A stretch of 64,000 bases of DNA from Promethearchaeota archaeon (GCA_019058245.1 JAHPZJ010000013.1:393166-457165); one strand, 5' to 3'; positions 2,970 through 44,989 are shown, counted from the first letter of the stretch. Notes: generated by a model not told the origin, from the letters alone. Numbers and translations are program-made.

Positions 2970-3506
2970 ATGTTGCTAGACGAGGAAAATCAAAGTAAAA
3001 GAGTTAATAACAAGAAAGGCAATATAAAGATCGATCTTGGGCGCCAAGGTGGTATTTTTATTGCTTACACGATTATATTACTAGGATATTATGGAATTGT
3101 TGCTAACATCATTATGATTGATGAGTGGATCTCTTTTACTGAACAAACTTGGATAAGTTTTACTGAAATGGACAGAACGGTATTATTTTGGACATTTGAA
3201 GTGTATGTAGATACGTTTTTCTTGCCCGTAATATTATTATTTGTTACTTGCTTTTTATTAACATATAAGGAGGAAATTCCTCACTATGGAATAAAAGCGT
3301 CAATCTGGCTTGTTCCTTTTATAATTATCGAAGCCTTTATTTTATATGCGGTCATGTATGGGTTTAGCATAGAGCCAATTATATTACAATTTGGAAATTG
3401 GAAGGGTTATTTGCATATTTGTATCTTAATTGCAACCACACTCTCTGGTGCTATAGGTGGTATGAAAGTCAAACAATTAATTAAATCAAGAAGAAATATA
3501 GAATAG
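2970..3506 (+). CDS. Hypothetical membrane protein (about 4-5 TM), first gene of the ABC operon
   Basis: 178-aa hydrophobic ORF 42 nt upstream of the permease gene. Confidence 0.75.
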   Translation: MLLDEENQSKRVNNKKGNIKIDLGRQGGIFIAYTIILLGYYGIVANIIMIDEWISFTEQTWISFTEMDRTVLFWTFEVYVDTFFLPVILLFVTCFLLTYKEEIPHYGIKASIWLVPFIIIEAFILYAVMYGFSIEPIILQFGNWKGYLHICILIATTLSGAIGGMKVKQLIKSRRNIE

Positions 3507-3548
3507 GAGAATTAAAAAGATATTATCGGTAGAAAAAAGGGAAAAAAC

Positions 3549-4826
3549 ATGGCTAAACAACCAAAAAATATGATAAAATATATCATAAAGAGGATATTAA
3601 TAATGTTTCCAATGTTGTTATTAGTTCTAACTCTTTCTTGGATAATATCATATTTTATGGTACAACAAAATTTAGTTAACCCGGTTGCCGGTAGATTGGG
3701 TAATACACTCGATCCTGATATTATTGAGGCAGAATTACGGAGAATTAGATACTATGATCCTTGGTATATTCAACTCGCTATATATTTTAAGAATTTTTTT
3801 ACTGGAAATTGGGGTACTTCTTATGTAATCATACGGGATAAACCTGTAATAGATTTAATTTCGGAAATATTTCCAAGGACAATAGAATTGATGATGATCC
3901 CGATAATCTTAAGTCCTATTATCGCAGTTAAACTGGGAATAGCTTCTGCAACTCATAGGGATAAAATAAAAGATGTAGGAGTTAGAATTATTGCAATCTT
4001 AGGGGCAGGATTCCCTGTCTTTTGGATTGCTGACATGCTCCAACGCTTTTTTGGTTATTATTTGAGTAATTTTACATATCAGGGCATCGATATACCGGCT
4101 TTTTTCGCAAATTCACCTGGATTACAAGGTCCTCAGGTAATTAAAACTCCACCTTTAATTACCATAAGTTTTTTTGGTGCTATAATTTTAGCCATTATTG
4201 CCATCCTTCTAATTTATAAACAATATACTAAATTTAAACAATATAATAAGTTCAAGCACATTGGTTGGATACTAGGATCACTTGTTATATTGATTATTTG
4301 TATAATCCGAATTTGTTTCCTAGCAGTGATTTCAAATATAAATTCTTATGGTACAGGATTTCGAATAATCGATAGTATAATGACTAATAACCAAATTTAT
4401 TTGTGGGACACAATATCACACCTAATTATACCTGGTATTTGTTTAACTTTTGTTTCATTAGCAAGTATGACAAGACAAACGCGTTCCAGCATGTTGGACG
4501 TTTTAAATCAAGATTATATTAGAACTGCTCGAGCTAAAGGTGTATTAGAAAAAGATGTTATAAATAAACATGCTATCCGCAACGCACTGTTACCAGTCAG
4601 TAATCTAATCATTGGGGGTACAGCTACAGCATTATTAGGCTCTTTTTTCGTCGAAATTGTCTTTAATTATAAAGGATTTGGTTATTATATGGTTATATCT
4701 ATATTAGTAGGAGATTACCAAGTTACTCTCGGACTCCTAGTATTTGCTACCATAATAATCATTTCTGGGACTTTAGTAGCAGATATACTTTATACGATTA
4801 TAGATCCACGAATTACTTACACTTAA
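3549..4826 (+). CDS. oppB: Oligopeptide/dipeptide ABC permease (OppB/DppB) with extra TM insertion
   Basis: YIIKRIL N-terminus, GNWGTS, QDYIRTARAKG (EAA loop), HAIRNALLP, C-terminal DPRI. Confidence 0.92.
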   Translation: MAKQPKNMIKYIIKRILIMFPMLLLVLTLSWIISYFMVQQNLVNPVAGRLGNTLDPDIIEAELRRIRYYDPWYIQLAIYFKNFFTGNWGTSYVIIRDKPVIDLISEIFPRTIELMMIPIILSPIIAVKLGIASATHRDKIKDVGVRIIAILGAGFPVFWIADMLQRFFGYYLSNFTYQGIDIPAFFANSPGLQGPQVIKTPPLITISFFGAIILAIIAILLIYKQYTKFKQYNKFKHIGWILGSLVILIICIIRICFLAVISNINSYGTGFRIIDSIMTNNQIYLWDTISHLIIPGICLTFVSLASMTRQTRSSMLDVLNQDYIRTARAKGVLEKDVINKHAIRNALLPVSNLIIGGTATALLGSFFVEIVFNYKGFGYYMVISILVGDYQVTLGLLVFATIIIISGTLVADILYTIIDPRITYT

Positions 4827-31570: not shown

Positions 31571-32194
31571 CTAATCTGGTAATTCGAAACTAATTTTATT
31601 TGATAATTTAGAATTCTTAAGGTCATCGAGTACATCAATATCGGAAAGAGTTGGTAATAGAAAATATTTTATACCAAGCTTATTAATATCTGCTATAGTA
31701 TCAGAAAATACGGAGGATGTACTCCACTTTTTATTTATAAACAATTCTTGATGTATTTCTTTAAGTCCCATCAAATAGTATCCTCCATCTTTTGCTGGTC
31801 CCAGTACAACATCATAATTTAGTAGTTGGTCAAATGCTTCATTAATAATCCTAGCAGTTAATTCCAAACAATCGCTTCCTATTATTACAGCTTTACGGTA
31901 TCGTTGTAGCGTGATCCTAAAGGCTTGCAGCATCTTTTCTCCAAAATCAGAACCTTTTTGTAAAAATTTTATAAAGAATTCTTTTTCCCAAAGATCATTC
32001 TCATCGATATAATCCGAATAAAATAATAAACGCGCACATGGAACTTCAAGTGAAATAGATCGTGTGTGTTCAATTAATACTTTATAAACAGTTAAAGCAC
32101 TCTCTTCTCCAATATCTGCAGCTAAACGTGTTTTTACACATCCTATATTAGGATTTCTTACAAGGATTATTAAGCCTTTATCATTCATTTTCAT
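31571..32194 (-). CDS. DUF2064/TIGR04282-like transferase
   Basis: VKTRLAADIG, QKGSDFGEKM, IIGSDC, VLGPAKDGGYYLMG, WSTSSV, LSDID; ATG at 32194 overlaps the upstream TGA stop (ATGA). Confidence 0.88.
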   Translation of the reverse strand: MKMNDKGLIILVRNPNIGCVKTRLAADIGEESALTVYKVLIEHTRSISLEVPCARLLFYSDYIDENDLWEKEFFIKFLQKGSDFGEKMLQAFRITLQRYRKAVIIGSDCLELTARIINEAFDQLLNYDVVLGPAKDGGYYLMGLKEIHQELFINKKWSTSSVFSDTIADINKLGIKYFLLPTLSDIDVLDDLKNSKLSNKISFELPD

Positions 32195-33189
32195 ATAACT
32201 ATTGTTGTGCAATTATTATTTACTCTAACTAGATCTTTTGAGTTTGCTTTTTGCCACTCAAGGTTTATTTCTTCCCCACGACACCAAGGGCAATATTCAT
32301 CATGATTATTTAATTTTCCTCTTATTGCTCGCCTACTAGCGCAACCTCCTTGACATAAACAATCTGCGGCAACTGGAGGGATGGCTTGAGCCATTATAAA
32401 TTGTTGAGTTTCAAAGATTTTTTCACCAAGCTCTAATAGGTCATTGATATCGGGAATGGGTTCAATAGCTTTATTATTTCCCCAATATACACAAGGGATT
32501 ACTTGTCCTTTAGGATTAATTCGTATGCTTTTACGACCACAAGGAGAAAAAATCTCCCCCAGTCCTAGCGCGGCTCTTACAACAGGTTCAAAACAAGAGA
32601 TGACCTTACCTTTGCTAAATAATAGTCGAAATCCCTCCCAGAATTCCTTATAATTAAGCTGATAATCGTCTGTATTTACAGATTGAAAAACACTAACACG
32701 CAAGTTAACTCCATATGAACGGGCAAGATCTACCATCTGGTCCATCTTGTCGTAATTAACAGACATCATTGTAGTAAGTATAGTCAATTCAATACCTGCG
32801 TTATCGCATCGTTTAATAGCCCTATTTACTAATTCCCAATTTCCTTTACCACGAAATTTATCTTGTTCTTGACTCGTAGGGAAATCAATGGAAACTTCAA
32901 TATCATTGAAAAGTTCTAAATATTTATCGGAAAGTCTACTTATAGTCAAACCGTTGGAGGCTAAACTGAGTCGCACATCTCGACAAGCTAAAAAGTTAAG
33001 AATTTCAAGGAATTCTGGATTTAATATATTTTCTCCAGTACCCATCCCTATCGAACTAATAGGTATCGCTTTGCATAGCTTTTGAATTTGTTTTAAAGTA
33101 ATATTAGAGATCTGCGTTTTATCACGATAACAATGTGTACAATTTAAATCACAATTATTGGTTAAACCAATTCCAATTGAATATTTCAT
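32191..33189 (-). CDS. Radical SAM protein with C-terminal SPASM/twitch-like Cys cluster
   Basis: CDLNCTHC; C-terminal CGRKSIRINPKGQVIPC...CLCQGGCASR...YCP. Confidence 0.88.
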   Translation of the reverse strand: MKYSIGIGLTNNCDLNCTHCYRDKTQISNITLKQIQKLCKAIPISSIGMGTGENILNPEFLEILNFLACRDVRLSLASNGLTISRLSDKYLELFNDIEVSIDFPTSQEQDKFRGKGNWELVNRAIKRCDNAGIELTILTTMMSVNYDKMDQMVDLARSYGVNLRVSVFQSVNTDDYQLNYKEFWEGFRLLFSKGKVISCFEPVVRAALGLGEIFSPCGRKSIRINPKGQVIPCVYWGNNKAIEPIPDINDLLELGEKIFETQQFIMAQAIPPVAADCLCQGGCASRRAIRGKLNNHDEYCPWCRGEEINLEWQKANSKDLVRVNNNCTTIVI

Positions 33190-33229
33190 TTATTCCATCT
33201 CCATATATTTAAGATTAAATTACCTCACT

Positions 33230-34051
33230 TTATTGACTAATACCTATTGCGATGAAATATACGATACTCGAGAAGAAATGGTTAAGTTGAAGTCGATTTT
33301 CTAGTTCCAACATCCAAGCATTATACTCTTCTTCTGTGATTATTTTCTGATCTAATGCACCAGATGCAGCGTGTCTAATGGATTGAGTCAACGAGCTATT
33401 TTCATCTGTTGCAATTGAAACTAAAGGACAAATGTTAATATCCTTCAAGCCATTAGCATTGAGCAAACTAAATAATTGTCTACCACTCCAATTGTTCCCA
33501 TCCTTATGATCAGTTCTCCAATGGAGTATTTTGCGCGTTACCTTGCGGTTTGGATGATCAACAGTTAGTGTCTCAAAATCCCAATCCATCAAGGCAATTT
33601 TTCCTCCGGATTTAACAGTGCGAATTAATTCCTCTACAACTCTTAGAGGATCATTTACATGAAGCAATAATCTTGTAGCGAAAACACTATCGAAATTATT
33701 ATCCTGACAAGGAAGATCTTCCGCATCTCCAACCTTAAATTGAATTAAATTAACTAAATTATCTTTACTTGCTTGTTCAAGAGCGAATGATATAATGCCT
33801 GGAGAATTATCGATCCCAGTTATACTTCCTCCCGGTTCAAGAAATGGTGCTATCAACCGAGATAATACTCCACTACCACATCCAACATCTAATAAATGTT
33901 CTCCAGGTTTTGGATTGAGTATATCTCTGAATCTTAAATTGATTTGGACCTGATCTGGATATTTTGAGCGTTTTTCAATATATTCAGCCATTTTTTTTGC
34001 TGTTTCTGGCTTTTTATTTGATTCCTTAGACCATAAGCTTGTTGGAACCAT
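33230..34051 (-). CDS. Class I SAM-dependent methyltransferase (UbiE/Methyltransf_11/31-like)
   Basis: LLDVGCGSG, GIDNS, GDAEDLP, FDSV, VKSGG. Confidence 0.9.
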   Translation of the reverse strand: MVPTSLWSKESNKKPETAKKMAEYIEKRSKYPDQVQINLRFRDILNPKPGEHLLDVGCGSGVLSRLIAPFLEPGGSITGIDNSPGIISFALEQASKDNLVNLIQFKVGDAEDLPCQDNNFDSVFATRLLLHVNDPLRVVEELIRTVKSGGKIALMDWDFETLTVDHPNRKVTRKILHWRTDHKDGNNWSGRQLFSLLNANGLKDINICPLVSIATDENSSLTQSIRHAASGALDQKIITEEEYNAWMLELENRLQLNHFFSSIVYFIAIGISQ

Positions 34052-36957: not shown

Positions 36958-37977
36958 TTAATCTATTATCTTTCTAATTTTTTTATATCTTTTGATATTT
37001 CTTCTAATTATTATAGGAAAATAACATAACTCAAGAAAGAATAATAGTAAAAAAAATTGAATATATACTGAATAGACTATCCAGGAAAATATTAAAAGAA
37101 GAGACAATCCTTCAATAAATATAAGAATCCATATTAGGATTATTAATCTATGATAATATAACCCTCTGATTAGAACATCATTTGTAATTGTATTTTCACA
37201 TGATCGACAGAGTCTATTATCGAATCGTATTTTATTGCCACACTTTGGGCAAAAATATAAATCTTTTTTAATAAAATATAACGTTCCAATTAACGTAGAA
37301 AAGACTAAAATTGAAGAAATAATTGTGGTATAAGATATAATGAATTTATTATAAGTATAGAGAAGTCTGATATTCCCAATCATAATATAATAATCCAATT
37401 CTGGATTATTTTCTGTAATATTAATACAAAAGGCAATTTCACTTAGTTGTTTCTCTTCAAAAATTTCGGTTAAATCAATAGTTTGTTCAAGATCATATTC
37501 TTCCCAAGGGTGTTGTGTAATCTCAGACATGTTGAAGTTATCGATTATTTCTTCGTGGTTAGGTTTATTATTCCAAGTTATCTCAGAATAATTCAAATTT
37601 GATTCAATCAATATTAAATTTAATTCAACATCTTCTACATCAGGACCATTAATATTATGTAAACTGTAAGAAGCAACAACAAGGTGAAGTGCTTCTGTTT
37701 CTTTTGGCAATATTGCAAGGTTATAATGGATAAATACTTCACAGGAATTTCCAAATTCTGTGTTTTTGCTTGAAGGAAAAAAATAATTCACATCAGGATT
37801 GCTTTGGTCCACATGTGTTAAACGGTCTACTTCTAATTCTCTGAGATATTTAGTAGTTATACCAATATTCCCACCAAATAAAGGAATAAAATTAATAATT
37901 AATAGAAAGAAAGATAGGATTGCTAAACTAATAAAAATTACTTTAGTTCTCAAATTCTTAATATATTGTGTTTTCAT
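36958..37977 (-). CDS. Membrane protein: TM + DNRLRE-like domain + TM + Zn ribbon + 2 TM (paralogue 2)
   Basis: HVDQSNPDVNY and EITWNNKP motifs; CPKC...CRSC; paralogue of 38002-39030. Confidence 0.7.
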   Translation of the reverse strand: MKTQYIKNLRTKVIFISLAILSFFLLIINFIPLFGGNIGITTKYLRELEVDRLTHVDQSNPDVNYFFPSSKNTEFGNSCEVFIHYNLAILPKETEALHLVVASYSLHNINGPDVEDVELNLILIESNLNYSEITWNNKPNHEEIIDNFNMSEITQHPWEEYDLEQTIDLTEIFEEKQLSEIAFCINITENNPELDYYIMIGNIRLLYTYNKFIISYTTIISSILVFSTLIGTLYFIKKDLYFCPKCGNKIRFDNRLCRSCENTITNDVLIRGLYYHRLIILIWILIFIEGLSLLLIFSWIVYSVYIQFFLLLFFLELCYFPIIIRRNIKRYKKIRKIID

Positions 37978-38001
37978 TTTAATTCGATTTTACTTAGTAT
38001 C

Positions 38002-39030
38002 TTAGTTTTTATAGTTTCTTACTTTTTTACGTATTTTTATCGAAAAGAAAATTATAGAGAAAATTAGTAAAGCTCCAACGATACAACCAATCTCCATAGC
38101 TCCAAAAAAAGGAAGGATGGAATAAAAAATGTTAAAGGATGTGGTTATAAGAAGAAAAATTACCTCAAAAAAAGCAAATATCCATAATAAAATTATTAAT
38201 ATTTGATAGTACAAACTAGTTCTTAGCATTTCATGTTCAAAAGGTTTCTGGCATGATGAACACCATAATTCAGTAAAATTCCTCTTTGTTTTACAATTTG
38301 GACAATAATATATACCTTTTCTCAGATAAACTATTGTTCCAATTAACATAATAAAAATTATAATTGAAGAAATAATTGCTGTATAAGATATAAGAAATTG
38401 TTCATAACTATATAGAAGCTTGATTCCGGATAGATAAACAATATCCTTCAATTCTTCATTATTTTCCGTAATATTAATACAAAAACTAATCTCTGTTTGT
38501 TGTCTTTCTTCAAAAATTTCTGTTAAATCAACGGTTTTTTCAAGATCATAATATTCTACAGTAAAATGATTCCTAATTGCAGAAGCATTTACAGTTTCGA
38601 TTATTTCTTCATGCTTAGGTTTATTATTCCAATTAATTTCGGAAGAATTCCAATTTGAGTCAACCAAAATTAAATTTATTTCAAAATCTTTAATATAAAA
38701 CATATAAGAATAGGATTGAAAACCATTAATCGTAAAATATAACTTTTTTGTTTCTTTTGGTAATGATTGAAGATTAAAATGGACAAAAAATTGACAAGAA
38801 TTTCCAACAATAGTATTATACATTAAATAATTATAATAGTTCATATCTGGATTACTTTGATTTACATATGCTACACGATCCCAGCCTAAATCTCTGGTAT
38901 ATTTAGTAGTTATACCTACATTCCCACTAAAGAAAGGAATAAAATTAATAATCAATAGAAAAGAAGATATGATCGCTAAACTAATAAAAATTACTTTGGT
39001 CCTCAAATTATTGATATTTTGTTTTTTCAT
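38002..39030 (-). CDS. Membrane protein: TM + DNRLRE-like domain + TM + Zn ribbon + 2 TM (paralogue 1)
   Basis: AYVNQSNPDMNY and WNSSEINWNNKP; CPNC...CSSC. Confidence 0.7.
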   Translation of the reverse strand: MKKQNINNLRTKVIFISLAIISSFLLIINFIPFFSGNVGITTKYTRDLGWDRVAYVNQSNPDMNYYNYLMYNTIVGNSCQFFVHFNLQSLPKETKKLYFTINGFQSYSYMFYIKDFEINLILVDSNWNSSEINWNNKPKHEEIIETVNASAIRNHFTVEYYDLEKTVDLTEIFEERQQTEISFCINITENNEELKDIVYLSGIKLLYSYEQFLISYTAIISSIIIFIMLIGTIVYLRKGIYYCPNCKTKRNFTELWCSSCQKPFEHEMLRTSLYYQILIILLWIFAFFEVIFLLITTSFNIFYSILPFFGAMEIGCIVGALLIFSIIFFSIKIRKKVRNYKN

Positions 39031-39041
39031 CTTTATCCCTT

Positions 39042-40391
39042 TTAAATTAATTTATTTGTTTGATATTTATCAATAGAAATGATTGGTTCTAATTCAGGTA
39101 ATTTTTTTTTTGGATTTTTTAATGACTTTAATTCTGATTTAACATCATTTTTAATTTGGGATTTATTCTGGACTTTTGTTATATTTAATAGTTTCAATGT
39201 TCTTTTATAATACCTAATTGCTTTTTGCTTTAAATTTAAATTAACAAAGACTCTTGCCAAATTCCAATAATAGAGAAAATTATCTCTGTATAACTTTATT
39301 GCAGTTAAGAATTTATTTAATGCATTTTTATAATCTTGTTTATAAAAACTTTTAATACCTTGATAGAATATATCTAAAGAATATCTTCTTATAATATTAG
39401 GAGAAAATAGCTTGAGATGATGTTTTTGAATATCTTGAGATAATTGCTCAATCTTTTTTACCATCTTATCTTTCTCAGTTTTAGAAGAAAGTAGTGTTTC
39501 AATCATACCCAAACCATATGATTCAATAGAAGCAAATATTATTTTCTGACTTCCTGGTATTAAAGGGGCTTTTATTAAAGCGTTTAGTAAAATTTCATGA
39601 AATTTATATCTAATTAGAATTTCTGGTAATTCTAAAATTTGAGAGCCATCAAAATCAGCGAAAAATTTAAAATTCTTCATTTCGTCTATAAAGATTTTAA
39701 CAATTAGGGGAGAAATTATTAATGAATCTTTAATCAATTTAAAATTTATTTTTCTATTATCATTTTTTATAAATTTAATTGTCTTTATAAGTAAATTATT
39801 TAAAAGATCTTCTTGTTCTTTTGTAATAAATAAATCTTTAAAATCTATTATCTTATTTATCAATAATTTTTTACGAATACACGTAAAACCTTGAAATATT
39901 TCAACGATATTACTCATTTCTGGCTTATTACACACAAATTCTACAGAAGGGATTGATTCTTTATTATAAAAACTTGTTTGAACTATATTTTCAAATCCAA
40001 TTTTTTCTAAAATTTCCTGCAACAATTGAGGAGGAAAGCAAAATTTATGTTCTAAACCTTCATGAGGAAGACCATATATCCAACTTAAAATATCCTTTTT
40101 TTTTTCATAATCTGAATTTAAATATGTGCGAAAAGCTTTTTCTAAATCAGGAGTCTCTAAGATCAATTTACCCTTGGGTTCTAAAACTCTAAAATATTCA
40201 CTTATAGCATAAATGGATTGGTATAATCCTAAATGCTCAATTAAATGAATTGCCTTTACTTCTTGGCAGGAAAAATCTTCAAACTCAAGATTTACTGCTG
40301 ACATCTTTTTGTCAGCAATTAGATCCTCATAAAGATCTATATTAATGTATTCCGGTTCAAATTGCTTCCCACAACCAATATTCAATTTCAT
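39042..40391 (-). CDS. SAM-dependent methyltransferase-like domain fused to C-terminal TPR repeats
   Basis: KLNIGCG, YINIDL, HLIEHL, RVLEPKG; C-terminal ALNKFLTAIKL..YYWNLARVF...AIRYYKRTLKL. Confidence 0.8.
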   Translation of the reverse strand: MKLNIGCGKQFEPEYINIDLYEDLIADKKMSAVNLEFEDFSCQEVKAIHLIEHLGLYQSIYAISEYFRVLEPKGKLILETPDLEKAFRTYLNSDYEKKKDILSWIYGLPHEGLEHKFCFPPQLLQEILEKIGFENIVQTSFYNKESIPSVEFVCNKPEMSNIVEIFQGFTCIRKKLLINKIIDFKDLFITKEQEDLLNNLLIKTIKFIKNDNRKINFKLIKDSLIISPLIVKIFIDEMKNFKFFADFDGSQILELPEILIRYKFHEILLNALIKAPLIPGSQKIIFASIESYGLGMIETLLSSKTEKDKMVKKIEQLSQDIQKHHLKLFSPNIIRRYSLDIFYQGIKSFYKQDYKNALNKFLTAIKLYRDNFLYYWNLARVFVNLNLKQKAIRYYKRTLKLLNITKVQNKSQIKNDVKSELKSLKNPKKKLPELEPIISIDKYQTNKLI

Positions 40392-40648
40392 TTTTTATCC
40401 TTAAAATCTTTTATACTTATACTAGAATATTTTGTTCCGCGAGCGTATATGGGATCTGTGGTTTTTGAATATAAAATTAAAGTTACATTCCAAAAGAAAA
40501 ATACAAAAATCGTGAGAATTACAATCAACATTAAAGCAAGGATTAATGGATATCGATTTTTAAAAAAAAGAGTATTAGTAATTTCTTTACGTGATAAACC
40601 CAATTCTTTTCCAATCTTGTAAAGTTGTATAATATTTTTATGGATCAA
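40388..40648 (-). CDS. Small single-TM peptide, tandem copy 3 (putative rSAM substrate/precursor)
   Basis: 86 aa; TTG start; stop overlaps the methyltransferase ATG (ATGA); tail YARGTKYSSISIKDFK. Confidence 0.75.
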   Translation of the reverse strand: MIHKNIIQLYKIGKELGLSRKEITNTLFFKNRYPLILALMLIVILTIFVFFFWNVTLILYSKTTDPIYARGTKYSSISIKDFKDKK

Positions 40649-40674
40649 ATTTAATCATCCATTTTTATCACTCA

Positions 40675-40944
40675 TCATTTAATTTTCTTTTTATCTTTAA
40701 AATCTTTCATACTAATACTAGAATATAAAGTTCCACGAGCGTATATGGGATCTGTGGTTTTTGAATATAAAATTAAAGCTACATTCCAAAAGAAAAATGC
40801 AAAAATCGTGAGAATTACAATCAGCATTAAAGCAAGGATTAATGGATATCGATTTTTAAAAAAAAGAGTATTAGTAATTTCTTTACGTGATAAACCCAAT
40901 TCTTTTCCAATCTTGCAAAGTTGTATAATATTTTTATATATCAA
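40675..40944 (-). CDS. Small single-TM peptide, tandem copy 2
   Basis: 89 aa; TTG start after a G-rich SD; tail YARGTLYSSISMKDFK. Confidence 0.75.
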   Translation of the reverse strand: MIYKNIIQLCKIGKELGLSRKEITNTLFFKNRYPLILALMLIVILTIFAFFFWNVALILYSKTTDPIYARGTLYSSISMKDFKDKKKIK

Positions 40945-40946
40945 AT

Positions 40947-41237
40947 TTAAACGCCCCCTTTTGTATAATATATTAGTTTATTTTTATTTTTAAAATCTTT
41001 TATACCAATACTGGAATAATAAGTTCCTTGAGCATATACTGGTTCTTGAGATTTTGCATAAAAGATTAACATTATATTCCAAAAAACAAGTGCAAAAACC
41101 GAGAGAATTACAATCATTATTAAAACAATTACCAATGAATGTCGATTTTTAAAAAAAAGAGTTCTATTGATTTCTTTGTGTGATAATCCTAATTCTTTTC
41201 CAATCTTATACAATTGAACAATATCTTTCAAAACCAA
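40947..41237 (-). CDS. Small single-TM peptide, tandem copy 1
   Basis: 96 aa; TTG start after a GAGGGA SD; tail YAQGTYYSSIGIKDFK. Confidence 0.75.
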   Translation of the reverse strand: MVLKDIVQLYKIGKELGLSHKEINRTLFFKNRHSLVIVLIMIVILSVFALVFWNIMLIFYAKSQEPVYAQGTYYSSIGIKDFKNKNKLIYYTKGGV

Positions 41238-41256
41238 ATTATTCCCTCTAATTATT

Positions 41257-42381
41257 TCATTTCAATAAAAGTTTTTGATATAGGTATTTATAATTTGAAA
41301 TTTTAGAATCAATCTTCCACCTAAATGGGAAAGATTTATTTTTAAATAATTCATTCTCAATTGCTCTTAAACAATATGGATTATCAGAACTATTTAAAGC
41401 TAACCTTGTACCTAAACATCCAGCTTTACATTTTTTAAACATCTTACATGTAGCACAATAATTTTTTAAGTCTATTTTTTCAGAATATTGAGCATATTTC
41501 AAATCAAATCTATAATTTATGATATTTGAAAGTGTAGTGGTTCTAATATTACCTTCAATAAAATCATCAGGTAAAGTTAAACACCCCTTAATATTACCAT
41601 TGCTTTGAATTCCTAAAACAGATTTACCTGCTTGACAACCAATCCATGGTTCCAATCCTAATTCTGGTAAAAAATTTGAAAAATATCCAAAACAATGAGC
41701 ACCTATTAGGGGCAATTCTTTTATTGAATACTTTTGAAGGCTTGATGCGATAAACATAGCTACTCCATAAAATTCTTTTCGAGAAATCACCAAATCTCTT
41801 GGAAATCTTCCAATCGGTATGGCTATTTGGATTTGCCAGGCAATTTTTCTATTAATTAATAAAGCACGAATTAGTTTCAATTCCTTAAAGTTGAGTTTAC
41901 TAACTGTAGTTATAACACTAACCGGGATGTTTTCTTTTTGGAGTAGTTTTATTGATTCTAATACCTTATAATATGCTCCTTTAATCCCCCTTATATAGTC
42001 ATGTGTTTCAGGAATTGCGCCATCTAAACTCAAAGAAACACATTCTGGTTGTAATTCTTTTAGCTTAGTAAGGTGATTTTTTATCACTAAACCATTAGAA
42101 ACAATAGTAAGTTTCATTTTTTGTTTTTTAATTTCTTGTGCGACTTCATACCAATCATCTCTTAAGAATGGTTCACCACCCATTAATGCAATCCCATCAT
42201 ATCCACAAGATCTTAAATCATTGACTAATAATAATGCTTCTTCTGTACTGAGTTCATTAGAGCGAATTTTGCCGGCTGATGAGCCACAATGAATACATTT
42301 ACTATTGCATTTTAATGTAAATTCCCATACAGCACATTTATGTTTGAAGAAATTGGATAATTGATAATGTAAATTTGACAT
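41257..42381 (-). CDS. Radical SAM/SPASM peptide maturase, PlpX(splicease)/TIGR03913-like
   Basis: AVWEFTLKCNSKCIHCGSSAG, ELSTEEAL, GGEPFLR, AWQIQIAIPIGR, WIGCQAGKSVLGIQSNGNIKGC, CATC..FKKCKAGC, NPYC. Confidence 0.85.
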   Translation of the reverse strand: MSNLHYQLSNFFKHKCAVWEFTLKCNSKCIHCGSSAGKIRSNELSTEEALLLVNDLRSCGYDGIALMGGEPFLRDDWYEVAQEIKKQKMKLTIVSNGLVIKNHLTKLKELQPECVSLSLDGAIPETHDYIRGIKGAYYKVLESIKLLQKENIPVSVITTVSKLNFKELKLIRALLINRKIAWQIQIAIPIGRFPRDLVISRKEFYGVAMFIASSLQKYSIKELPLIGAHCFGYFSNFLPELGLEPWIGCQAGKSVLGIQSNGNIKGCLTLPDDFIEGNIRTTTLSNIINYRFDLKYAQYSEKIDLKNYCATCKMFKKCKAGCLGTRLALNSSDNPYCLRAIENELFKNKSFPFRWKIDSKISNYKYLYQKLLLK

Positions 42382-42562: not shown

Positions 42563-43684
42563 TTAAAATAAGATAAAATCACAAGAGGGACATTTCTTTC
42601 TATCTCCTTTTATAATTTTACTACAATTTGGACAAATTTTTATTGAAGGTTTTTTGTTATTTTGTTCACTTTCGATTTGTGCTCTAATTGATAATGCCAT
42701 TGGATCAACAGCTTGAATAATCTTAGGTTTTGTCCTTGCTTCTAACTCATGTAAATAATCTACAATATTTTTCTTTTGAACTTGAGTCTTTTTTGCAATA
42801 GAAGGAATTTTTCCTGCTTGTACGTCATTCACATAACCACTATCAAGTTTTAGAATGTTAAAGCAATTGTGGCATCTGAACACGTTAGAGATTCCTATAT
42901 TAGATGTTTTAGCCCATTGAGACCAACATACCTTATGAGCAACGGTTTCACAGGAAGGACACCTCACTATACCTTCATTACCTTGCTGAAAGCAAATTGA
43001 ACAAGTAACTGTTTCGTTTACTATTTCAGGTTCATCTGCTAAATTAGTATAAAATGGTTGATTATCAGGTAAGATCATTCTTAATCGTTGCTTGATAAAT
43101 GAAGGTTCTGATACATATTTTTTCTCTGAAAGATTAGTTAAAATGGGATTTAACTCTTTAAGTTTAGAAATTTCATGCAAACTCCCATTGCATAATTTTA
43201 CTAGTCTGATTAATTTAGAATGCAATTCTGGATTAGGGTCTCCAACTCTTACGATATCAATAAAAAGAGGCATATCTTTTACAACTTTAATTAGTTCTTC
43301 TATTGGTGGAAGATATTCTGGAGGGATATTATAGGCTCCTTTATCTATTAAAATTATTAATCGAAATATTTTTTCTGAAATTTTTTTATATACCTCAATA
43401 ATAAATGTTATTGCTAAGAATATCCCCCCCGCAATATTTGCATTAGTAATGTGTCCAGCCAATGATTTTAATGTATCAAGAATAATATCTGGATTAAATG
43501 TAAAATGTTCCAAATAATTTGGTCCTTCATTTTTAAATACAATAAGATTAAATCGATCAGATGGATCAATACTTTGTTTATTTTTCATAAATTCTGATAT
43601 TGAATTATAGACCTGACGTAATTTAATTATATTTGGAGTGAAACCATAAAAAATGAGACAATCTTCGCTTTTTGTGGATTCCAT
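42563..43684 (-). CDS. vWA-like domain + C4HC3 (PHD/RING-variant) finger + C-terminal Zn ribbon
   Basis: alpha/beta N-terminal domain; CSIC-x10-CPSC-x4-H-x2-C-x17-CHNC; terminal CPNC...CPSC. Confidence 0.75.
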   Translation of the reverse strand: MESTKSEDCLIFYGFTPNIIKLRQVYNSISEFMKNKQSIDPSDRFNLIVFKNEGPNYLEHFTFNPDIILDTLKSLAGHITNANIAGGIFLAITFIIEVYKKISEKIFRLIILIDKGAYNIPPEYLPPIEELIKVVKDMPLFIDIVRVGDPNPELHSKLIRLVKLCNGSLHEISKLKELNPILTNLSEKKYVSEPSFIKQRLRMILPDNQPFYTNLADEPEIVNETVTCSICFQQGNEGIVRCPSCETVAHKVCWSQWAKTSNIGISNVFRCHNCFNILKLDSGYVNDVQAGKIPSIAKKTQVQKKNIVDYLHELEARTKPKIIQAVDPMALSIRAQIESEQNNKKPSIKICPNCSKIIKGDRKKCPSCDFILF

Positions 43685-43912
43685 TTTAGAATTAAAGATT
43701 TAAATAACAAATAAATATTGAAATACTTAATACAAAAATCGTACAGGAATAATAAGTATATTATTGTTAATAACATTAAAGATTTAGGCAAAAATAATAA
43801 AAACTTTTAAAACAGCACTAACTAATAATATCTTTTAAATAATTGAAAAAAAAATTTGGAGTATTTCCATTTTCCTCCCATTTAAATATAACTATAATCA
43901 AATAAACAATAA

Positions 43913-44989
43913 TTAACGTTTTTTTTTCTTACTTTTCTTTTTTGAACTTTCAGGCTCTTCTTTCTTCGTTTCAATCATTGCCCTTACATCAGATGCGAAT
44001 GGATCTTCAGTTTGTATGACTTGTGGTGTGCTCTGAGCTTCAATTTCTCGTAAATAATCAACTATATCTTTCTTTTTCATCTTATTTAATTCAGCAATTG
44101 TGGGAATTTTACCTGCTTGTACATCATTAATATAATTCTTATCTAATTTTAAGATATTAAAACAATTGTGACAACGATATACATGTGGAATTCCAATATG
44201 AGAGGTTTGTGCCCATTGTGCCCAACATACTTCATGGGCAACTGTTTGACATGATGGACATCTTATGAGCCCTTCATTACCCTGTTGAAAGCAAATTGAA
44301 CAAGTTGAAATATCAGTAACTCTCTCAGGTTCATCAGCTAAATTTATATAAAACATTTGATTTTCCTCTGGTATCCTACGAATTTCTTGCTTGCTAAACG
44401 CGGGTTGTATAATTTTTTTTTTATATGAAAGTTCCATTAGTAGAGGATCTAACTCATCAATACTACTAATCTCATAGAATTCTCCTTTAGTTAAATTCAC
44501 TAATTTATTCAACCTATTACGCTCTTCATAATCTGGTTGCCCTATATATATAACATCAATAAAAAACGGCATATCTTTAACTTTATTAATTAATTCTTCT
44601 AAAGCAGGAAGGTATTGGGATGGAATTGCATATGCACCATCATCTACTATGATTAAAAGACGAAAGATCTTCTCTGAGATTTTTTTATATACTTCTATTA
44701 TAAATGTAGTTGCTACGAATACACCACCAGCGATACTTGCTCTGGAAATATTTTTTTCTACTGATTTTAGCATTGATAAAACTAGGTTTGTGTCAAAAGC
44801 AAAATGATCCAAATAATTTGGACCATCAGGAAGAAATAAAATCAAATTAAACCTGTCTGAAGGATCATTAGCTTGCTTTATTTTCATAAACTCTGAAATT
44901 GAATTATAAAGGTCTTTGAATTTTGTTAATTCTGGAGTTAATCCATAAAAAATCAAGCAATCTTCACTCTTGGAGACTTTAAGAGTCAT
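43913..44989 (-). CDS. vWA-like domain + C4HC3 finger, paralogue with Lys-rich tail
   Basis: Close paralogue of 42563-43684; ends SSKKKSKKKKR. Confidence 0.75.
   Translation of the reverse strand: MTLKVSKSEDCLIFYGLTPELTKFKDLYNSISEFMKIKQANDPSDRFNLILFLPDGPNYLDHFAFDTNLVLSMLKSVEKNISRASIAGGVFVATTFIIEVYKKISEKIFRLLIIVDDGAYAIPSQYLPALEELINKVKDMPFFIDVIYIGQPDYEERNRLNKLVNLTKGEFYEISSIDELDPLLMELSYKKKIIQPAFSKQEIRRIPEENQMFYINLADEPERVTDISTCSICFQQGNEGLIRCPSCQTVAHEVCWAQWAQTSHIGIPHVYRCHNCFNILKLDKNYINDVQAGKIPTIAELNKMKKKDIVDYLREIEAQSTPQVIQTEDPFASDVRAMIETKKEEPESSKKKSKKKKR

Follow-up and report, generated by a model that had tools for sequence, protein, structure and literature searches.

A cluster of seven genes was analysed in a stretch of 64,000 nt from a Promethearchaeota archaeon (GCA_019058245.1 JAHPZJ010000013.1:393166-457165), the whole of which is called the window below, with positions counted from its start. 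The cluster encodes a radical S-adenosylmethionine (rSAM) enzyme with a SPASM domain, three short membrane peptides, a protein joining a methyltransferase (MTase) to a region resembling tetratricopeptide repeats (TPR), and two accessory membrane proteins. The original prediction on this locus had described seven co-oriented and tightly packed genes, with gaps of 2-26 nt and one ATGA overlap, and had put them forward as a candidate undescribed modification system. At the level of the genes, this description is accurate: seven open reading frames (ORFs) follow each other on the minus strand, with spacings of 19, 2, 26, -4, 11 and 24 nt from the rSAM gene onwards. The corresponding features are as follows, with the evidence in brackets:

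41257..42381, minus strand: rSAM-SPASM enzyme, 374 aa (Pfam Radical_SAM and SPASM; archaeal clade related to tyramine spliceases in the tree)
40947..41237, minus strand: peptide A, a precursor-like membrane peptide of 96 aa with a leader helix, one transmembrane (TM) segment and the tail site T-Y-Y-S (ORF list, alignment)
40992..41036, minus strand: tail motif Y68-F82 of peptide A, Y-x-x-G-x-X-Y-S-[ST]-[IV]-x-x-K-D-F (alignment)
40675..40944, minus strand: peptide B, a precursor-like membrane peptide of 89 aa with the site T-L-Y-S (ORF list, alignment, complex model)
40699..40743, minus strand: tail motif Y68-F82 of peptide B (alignment, column entropies)
40388..40648, minus strand: peptide C, a precursor-like membrane peptide of 86 aa with the site T-K-Y-S, its stop overlapping the MTase start in ATGA (ORF list, alignment)
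40403..40447, minus strand: tail motif Y68-F82 of peptide C (alignment, column entropies)
39042..40391, minus strand: MTase-TPR protein, 449 aa, with a class I SAM methyltransferase domain (1-157) and an all-helical, TPR-like domain (160-425) (AlphaFold2 model, Foldseek, invariant SAM motifs)
38002..39030, minus strand: accessory membrane protein 1, 342 aa, CBM96/DNRLRE (NCBIfam DNRLRE_dom, Pfam CBM96, AlphaFold2 model, Foldseek)
36958..37977, minus strand: accessory membrane protein 2, 339 aa, paralogue of accessory protein 1 (52% identity)

Conservation of the cassette

Three of these components, i.e., the rSAM-SPASM enzyme, the MTase-TPR protein and one to four peptide genes, form a triad that is kept intact in 20 loci of related genomes, even where rSAM identity is as low as 56%, with a gene order that varies from one locus to another (MTase upstream or downstream, peptides on either side). 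When all ORFs of 21 loci were clustered, this triad was the only universally shared set, and neither a protease nor a transporter or exporter was shared; the flanking genes for RING/vWA proteins and for a 2-oxoacid oxidoreductase are retained among the closest relatives only. Because the arrangement recurs in dozens of genomes with a rearranged order, it cannot be attributed to chance.

Among 301 Asgard genomes that were sampled, the rSAM was detected in 73, the MTase-TPR in 71 and the peptide in 51, their genes lying on the same contigs at adjacent coordinates. Both enzymes are found together in 67 genomes, against six with the rSAM only and four with the MTase only, these singles being mostly fragments at contig ends, so that the MTase-TPR protein, rightly predicted to be a part of the system, behaves as an obligate partner of the rSAM. 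A suggested check was whether peptide homologues always neighbour this rSAM clade, and the answer is nearly, not strictly, affirmative: the rSAM is present in 49 of the 51 peptide-positive genomes, while the two exceptions correspond to a marginal match (E 9e-4) and to a genome in which peptide and MTase genes adjoin each other and the rSAM was not found with the query used. Moreover, when named genomes were scanned with the MTase-TPR as the only seed, a rSAM of the clade lay at most 4 kb from the MTase-TPR gene in 69 of 80 loci. The cassette is carried by only about half of the genomes of the window's own genus and is therefore an accessory unit.

The closest rSAM homologues are labelled Promethearchaeota, Lokiarchaeia and other Asgard groups, and the cassette was found in metagenome-assembled genomes (MAGs) labelled Thor-, Hermod-, Hod-, Odin-, Hel- and Heimdallarchaeota and Atabeyarchaeia, as well as, beyond Asgard, in MAGs labelled Thermoplasmata, Aenigmatarchaeota, Nanohalarchaeota and Undinarchaeota, such labels being liable to include binning errors. 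The predicted modification system thus recurs across archaea and appears to be undescribed, in that no publication on the archaeal cassette was found by a search that did not reach the main splicease survey (Scott et al., Chem 2022). A separate observation concerns a contig of 2667 bases labelled Patescibacteria (L134), which is assigned to a bacterial MAG. It carries an ORF with a leader next to part of a MTase-TPR gene (42% identity over 158 residues), and could reflect either a binning error or a transfer.

The AlphaFold2 model of the 449-aa MTase-TPR protein (predicted local distance difference test, pLDDT, 89; predicted template modelling score 0.86) separates the MTase domain from an all-helical, repeat-like domain; the former matches class I MTases at a Foldseek probability of 1.00 and was classed as having their fold. 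Among 19 homologues, the motifs L-N-x-G-x-G, N-x-D, E-H and F-R-x-L are invariant, and so is the loop W-I-Y-G-x-P-x-x-G-x-x-H-K. All Pfam matches remain below their cut-offs, whether Methyltransf_23 (23.6 bits for a cut-off of 27), TPR_2 (24 for 27) or TPR_11 (22.4 for 26.8). The ATGA overlap between the MTase start and the preceding peptide stop is found in 33 of 51 loci.

The two accessory proteins share the same layout of hydrophobic segments: an N-terminal TM segment, a CBM96/DNRLRE beta-sandwich, a second TM segment, a CxxC...CxxC zinc ribbon and two C-terminal helices. Accessory protein 1 scores above the cut-offs for the NCBIfam DNRLRE domain (NF033679, 40.9 bits for 34) and for Pfam CBM96 (PF24517, 32.3 for 26), and its AlphaFold2 model resembles a chondroitin-sulfate-binding module (8wab, Foldseek E 5.5e-9); for accessory protein 2, the matches to both families fall below the cut-offs. 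Members of this protein family were found in 11 of the 101 genomes of the taxonomic family, and no copy was found outside the cassette in the window's own genome. As every copy directly adjoins the MTase gene, bar a few pieces on short contig fragments, these proteins are linked to the cassette as had been proposed, i.e., cluster-specific and restricted to a sub-clade.

The radical SAM enzyme and the known spliceases

The enzyme scores above the Pfam cut-offs for both Radical_SAM (PF04055, 81.7 bits for 29.5) and SPASM (PF13186, 25.6 bits for 21.5), and it features the CX3CX2C motif and the full set of seven SPASM cysteines, these cysteines being invariant in 23 homologues. Its translation contains all the motifs that had been listed for it, namely AVWEFTLKCNSKCIHCGSSAG, ELSTEEAL, AWQIQIAIPIGR, WIGCQAGKSVLGIQSNGNIKGC and NPYC. 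The claimed affinity with TIGR04103 and TIGR03913 is borne out as a ranking, since these are its two best NCBIfam matches, but not as a membership: TIGR04103 is matched with 198.3 bits over residues 13-341 (curated cut-off 725) and TIGR03913 with 161.2 bits (cut-off 591.75), the third best match being TIGR04133 (155 bits; cut-off 425). All 23 members of the clade likewise score best on TIGR03913 and TIGR04103, ahead of TIGR04133 and AhbD. Among annotated plasmids searched with tblastn, the top match is a Nostoc "nif11-class peptide radical SAM maturase 3" (34% identity, E 3e-51), followed by an Agathobacter enzyme, an Aureibacter enzyme and GDL-motif maturases, with MftC and TIGR04053 well behind. 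A PDB sequence search returned no solved splicease structure, the best match being SkfB, over the rSAM core only.

A maximum-likelihood tree was computed from 40 sequences, which did not include AhbD, NirJ and PqqE references or the experimentally proven spliceases. It is divided by a split supported at 100/99, with the archaeal clade, the TIGR04103/TIGR03913 group, the Agathobacter enzyme and TIGR04133 on one side, and MftC, TIGR04053, PqqD-associated rSAMs and eight rSAM paralogues from the window's own genome on the other side. The archaeal clade itself is monophyletic for 15 of its 16 sequences (98/98), one sequence (L050) branching just outside. Together with the ranking of the HMM (Hidden Markov Model) matches, this grouping with TIGR04103 and TIGR03913 agrees with the prediction that the enzyme is related to the spliceases. 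An affiliation with cofactor-biosynthesis enzymes, which was to be checked, is not seen in the tree; AhbD, NirJ and PqqE, lying outside of it, rank lower by HMM score.

A Tyr site is present in all the peptides encoded next to these bacterial relatives. The Nostoc rSAM adjoins a Nif11 precursor ending in L-Y-G-L-P, while the TIGR03913-type rSAMs adjoin trios of DUF1843 peptides with L-Y-G, P-Y-G, L-Y-A or M-Y-A. In Aureibacter, a class I methyltransferase lies behind the rSAM of the DUF1843 trio; considered as a counterpart of the MTase-TPR protein, it was rejected because the two are not homologous. On an Agathobacter rectalis plasmid (NZ_CP143948.1, L054), an unannotated 35-aa ORF ending in V-M-Y-G-T-G-V-R-M (about 2825-2935) precedes a rSAM-SPASM gene (3016-4170; product 33.5% identical to the window rSAM) and a major facilitator superfamily transporter. 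As an observation in its own right, this ORF is likely an unannotated precursor of the spliceotide type in a human gut bacterium.

No route other than spliceases is known to ribosomally encoded alpha-keto-beta-amino acids. The archaeal cassette can be compared with four known groups of systems. The first one consists of the binary spliceotide systems of Rheinheimera, which lack a Y protein (RhaX/RhaA, RcsX/RcsA and RasX/RasA; PMC11414181, PMC11626197): they too have a rSAM-SPASM enzyme beside its precursors and no gene for a RRE (the recognition element of RiPPs, peptides made on the ribosome and modified after translation), a precursor leader whose alpha-helix binds the enzyme (modelled in the archaeal case), a target Tyr placed after a variable residue and several precursor copies or cores. 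In contrast, the archaeal cassette has an enzyme from a separate clade, a site reading X-Y-S (X-Y-G or X-Y-N in distant members), presumed substrates with one to three TM helices, an obligate MTase with a helical/TPR domain and a second Tyr-Pro motif. The second group is that of the type I spliceases PlpX/PcpX with PlpY (TIGR04103, IPR026482), which provides the best NCBIfam match, the best tblastn match being adjacent to a Nif11 precursor with L-Y-G, whereas the archaeal cassette is devoid of Nif11 or NHLP leaders and of a PlpY-like gene. The third one, the TIGR03913 "rad_SAM_trio" with DUF1843, also shows three short tandem precursors beside the enzyme, with Tyr followed by G, A or M and, in Aureibacter, the methyltransferase mentioned above; however, the DUF1843 peptides are soluble with an N-terminal Tyr site, and the archaeal peptides do not belong to DUF1843. 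Finally, TIGR04133 falls within the same 100/99 super-clade, but its partner is a lipoprotein.

The small membrane peptides

Pfam and NCBIfam scans of peptides A-C gave only noise, without any family match, and an exhaustive search of 1.84 billion representatives with the peptide profile retrieved only 77 clusters. According to 34 close homologues, the peptides are made of three parts: an N-terminal segment I-G-K-E-L-G-L-x-x-K-E-I, in which G13 is invariant, a variable hydrophobic helix and a C-terminal tail with the motif Y68-x-x-G71-x-X73-Y74-S75-[ST]-[IV]-x-x-K-D81-F82. In this tail, which is as strongly conserved as the leader, Y74 and S75 never vary and conservation reaches 90% or more at Y68, G71, D81 and F82, while the most variable position is X73, immediately before the invariant Tyr. 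When paralogues of one locus are compared with each other (78 pairs), X73 is different in 87% of the pairs, Ser75 in 6% and Tyr74 in 0%. In the window, it is Tyr in peptide A, Leu in peptide B and Lys in peptide C, and two of the 16 differences between the genes of peptides B and C (over 261 nt) fall within its codon.

Directly after the conserved Tyr, 103 of 107 close precursors have S; 38 distant precursors have G (20), N (11), S (4), D (2) or A (1) at this position. X-Y-G is thus the commonest reading at the aligned site in distant loci, and it is also seen in P0163, P0170 and others. It had been argued that the peptides lack YG and that the chemistry should consequently differ; this argument does not hold, given that their invariant Tyr-Ser aligns with Tyr-Gly in distant members of the family.

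Distant relatives take several forms. P0170 and P0190 have no TM segment and carry three to five tandem repeats of the tail motif behind a single leader, while P0175 has three leader-plus-core units, which is the layout of multi-core RiPP precursors. The neighbours of P0190 include a pair of rSAM-SPASM genes from the clade (50% and 43% identity), together with genes for a B12-rSAM, a hydrolase and a CPBP protease. In loci labelled Heimdall, Hel, Thermoplasmata and DPANN, the ORFs beside the cassette share the leader, have one to three TM segments and feature the motif G-Y-P-[FY] and a C-terminal x-Y-[G/N/S]-V-[YF]. In a Helarchaeota MAG (L120, 5337-5847), three tandem lysine-rich peptides of 46-65 aa, without leader or TM segment, lie between the MTase-TPR and rSAM genes, and each of them carries both G-Y-P-[FY] and x-Y-G-V-Y; they would be the simplest natural form of the substrate and convenient for experiments.

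Two side observations concern the genes of these peptides. First, a variant cluster on metagenome contigs (L051/L052, 263-7803) combines a TM-less five-core precursor, a 51-aa ORF with a single core and two rSAM-SPASM genes of the clade with genes for a B12-binding rSAM, an alpha/beta-hydrolase, a CPBP/Rce1-like protease and a 442-aa protein without family; a profile search of the multi-core locus L051 found no MTase-TPR. Second, all three peptide genes of the window open with TTG, and in two related genomes (L037:6867-7124 and L036:3929-4186, both on the minus strand) the peptide gene adjoining the rSAM lacks any of the codons ATG, GTG and TTG at the position of the conserved N-terminus; the frames begin with ATA ATT behind a GGTGAT motif of the Shine-Dalgarno type, which suggests a non-canonical start.

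The recognition of the leader was addressed by modelling the complex of the rSAM with peptide B, one of the co-folding checks that had been proposed, which turned out positively. The leader docks on the enzyme with an ipSAE interface score of 0.65 (runs: 0.71, 0.65 and 0.38), the best of three controls reaching 0.00; the mark used for this score is reached by 58 of 80 solved complexes and by two of 110 mismatched pairs, counts that hold only roughly here since our own alignments were used. The runs share at least 87% of their contacts, with a partner pLDDT of at least 72, and the confident interface brings residues 1-30 of the peptide against residues 165-169, 202-217, 237-239 and 345-349 of the rSAM. 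The model therefore supports a binding of the leader by the enzyme. Among the seven cassette proteins, Pfam and NCBIfam scans found no PqqD match, from which a different mode of recognition had been deduced. This deduction is not tenable, because most known spliceases are binary systems without RRE, activated by the alpha-helix of the precursor leader (PMC11414181), and the missing PqqD-like gene is thus no argument for another mechanism.

Proposed chemistry and alternative explanations

In our interpretation, the triad would be a three-component cassette for post-translational modification, with the small proteins as substrates, Tyr74 as the target and a chemistry most likely of the splicease type, an explanation to which, taken as a whole, we give about an even chance. 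Its parts are not equally secure. That the three peptides are the substrates, as had been claimed, is quite probable in view of the co-occurrence, of the multi-core TM-less relatives and of the modelled complex of leader and rSAM. That Tyr74 is the modified residue, which the conservation pattern of the tail suggests, is somewhat likelier than the converse. As for the chemistry, the excision of tyramine by a splicease-type reaction is the best reading of the motifs and of the enzyme phylogeny, and we put it forward tentatively, at a little under even chances. In this scheme, the conserved N-terminal helix (I-G-K-E-L-G-L...K-E-I) would act as a leader docking on the helix 202-217 of the rSAM, and the cytoplasmic rSAM-SPASM enzyme would then modify the invariant Tyr74 of the C-terminal tail, most likely by excising a tyramine equivalent. 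The MTase-TPR protein would methylate the substrate (Tyr68 and Asp81 being candidates), hold it, or both, and the product would stay anchored in the membrane, given that no protease or exporter is conserved with the cassette. Splicing appears to be the most economical chemistry on account of the relatives of the enzyme, of the ancestral-looking X-Y-G, of the free X position and of cores and paralogues that differ precisely at X.

Several points weigh against this interpretation. The archaeal clade is not nested among the spliceases; it is a sister lineage in a polytomy shared with TIGR04133, whose function is unknown, and its scores for TIGR04103 and TIGR03913 are far below the cut-offs. The complex model leaves the tail unplaced, outside of the active site, and bears no information on the modified residue. 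With a single TM segment, leader and tail should end up on opposite sides of the membrane, so that the peptide would need to be modified before it is inserted; the net charge is about +5 in the N-terminal segment as well as in the tail (counted from the sequence), and the positive-inside rule consequently gives no topology. The window peptides read X-Y-S, not X-Y-G, and the splicease literature that we found reports no characterised splicease acting on Tyr-Ser. Finally, the second conserved Tyr, in the Y-P motif, and the obligate methyltransferase have no counterpart in the spliceotide literature found, from which it follows that the chemistry may differ.

The best surviving alternative retains the same cassette and the same substrates and replaces splicing by another radical chemistry on the conserved Tyr, e.g., a cross-link that involves Tyr68 or Tyr74, a C-beta functionalisation or an epimerisation, together with methylation. 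It is suggested by the site itself (Tyr-Ser in the window sub-family, often Tyr-Asn in distant members), by the existence of two family-wide Tyr motifs (G-Y-P-[FY] and x-Y-[GSN]-V-[YF]), by the position of the clade apart from the proven spliceases, in its polytomy with the uncharacterised TIGR04133, and by the many peptide chemistries of rSAM-SPASM enzymes, which are reflected in the spread of the NCBIfam matches. Yet the nearest annotated relatives all adjoin X-Y-G/A precursors, and a hypervariable X beside an invariant Tyr fits splicing, in which X becomes the new side chain, whereas a cross-link would be expected to come with conserved partner residues rather than with a free X. On balance, we regard this other chemistry as possible, if rather unlikely. 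Thioethers of the sacti- or ranthipeptide type were considered separately and excluded, for the tail has no conserved Cys.

In a second alternative, the small proteins would be membrane tethers or regulators recruiting the enzymes, the true target being a lipid, a cofactor or another protein, such as the DNRLRE proteins. The membrane-embedded nature of the peptides, the confinement of confident model contacts to their N-terminal helix, away from the tail, and the lack of a conserved protease or exporter would all suit this role. It is nevertheless impossible for the TM-less relatives with three to five repeated tail motifs, it leaves a tail motif as conserved as the leader to be accounted for, and the DNRLRE proteins are missing from most loci, so that we deem it improbable. 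As to a neighbourhood due to shared ancestry only, without joint function, plain synteny does exist here, as illustrated by the RING/vWA and 2-oxoacid oxidoreductase flanks of close relatives, but the triad is kept between loci whose MTases share no more than 25-30% identity, in different Asgard classes and in MAGs labelled Thermoplasmata or DPANN, with a shuffled order and a near-perfectly correlated presence and absence, which makes this hardly credible.

Coming back to the modification cassette with splicing, its function can be approached only by analogy: ketoamides resulting from splicing inhibit serine and cysteine proteases (PMC11626197), and one plausible, purely inferred, role of the products would be that of a membrane-anchored set of such variants, with the side chains of Leu, Lys and Tyr. 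In a broader and more speculative conjecture, to which we attach less credence than to splicing itself, Asgard and other archaea would turn small membrane proteins into backbone-edited carriers, with paralogues differing in the edited side chain, for instance as membrane-anchored ketoamide protease inhibitors, and an enzyme acting on Tyr-Ser or Tyr-Asn with a dedicated MTase would represent either a new branch of spliceases or a new Tyr-directed radical reaction.

According to a review, spliceases have been catalogued in 189 bacterial genera (PMC10849128), and another paper attributes them loosely to "bacterial and archaeal genomes" (PMC11626197). Here, enzymes of a related and monophyletic clade are a fixed part of a three-gene cassette among Asgard lineages, as well as in MAGs labelled Thermoplasmata and DPANN. 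The substrates are likely membrane proteins instead of secreted peptides, a methyltransferase partner is mandatory, and the site has drifted from Tyr-Gly to Tyr-Ser. If splicing is true, the rule for splicease substrates becomes wider, the closest prokaryotic relatives of eukaryotes possess membrane proteins with an edited backbone, and new enzymes become available for protein engineering; if the other chemistry is true, the cassette performs a new radical modification of tyrosine. The hypothesis is directly testable, the natural TM-less precursors making the experiments easier.

Surroundings of the cassette

A scan for sigma-70 promoters in the window gave 53 sites for 48.9 expected, and no intrinsic terminator was found, both models being uninformative for an archaeon. 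Directly upstream of the cassette (42563-44989, minus strand), two paralogous proteins of about 360-370 aa show a weak similarity to a Prok-RING_1/C1-like zinc finger (E 1.2e-5, below the cut-off); this pair is kept beside the cassette in the closest relatives only and hence looks like plain synteny rather than a part of the system. Further along the window (32191-34051, minus strand), a second and unrelated radical SAM protein, whose best match is the GeoRSP rSAM (82 bits, below the cut-off), adjoins a class I methyltransferase (Methyltransf_11, 78 bits) and groups with non-splicease enzymes in the tree.

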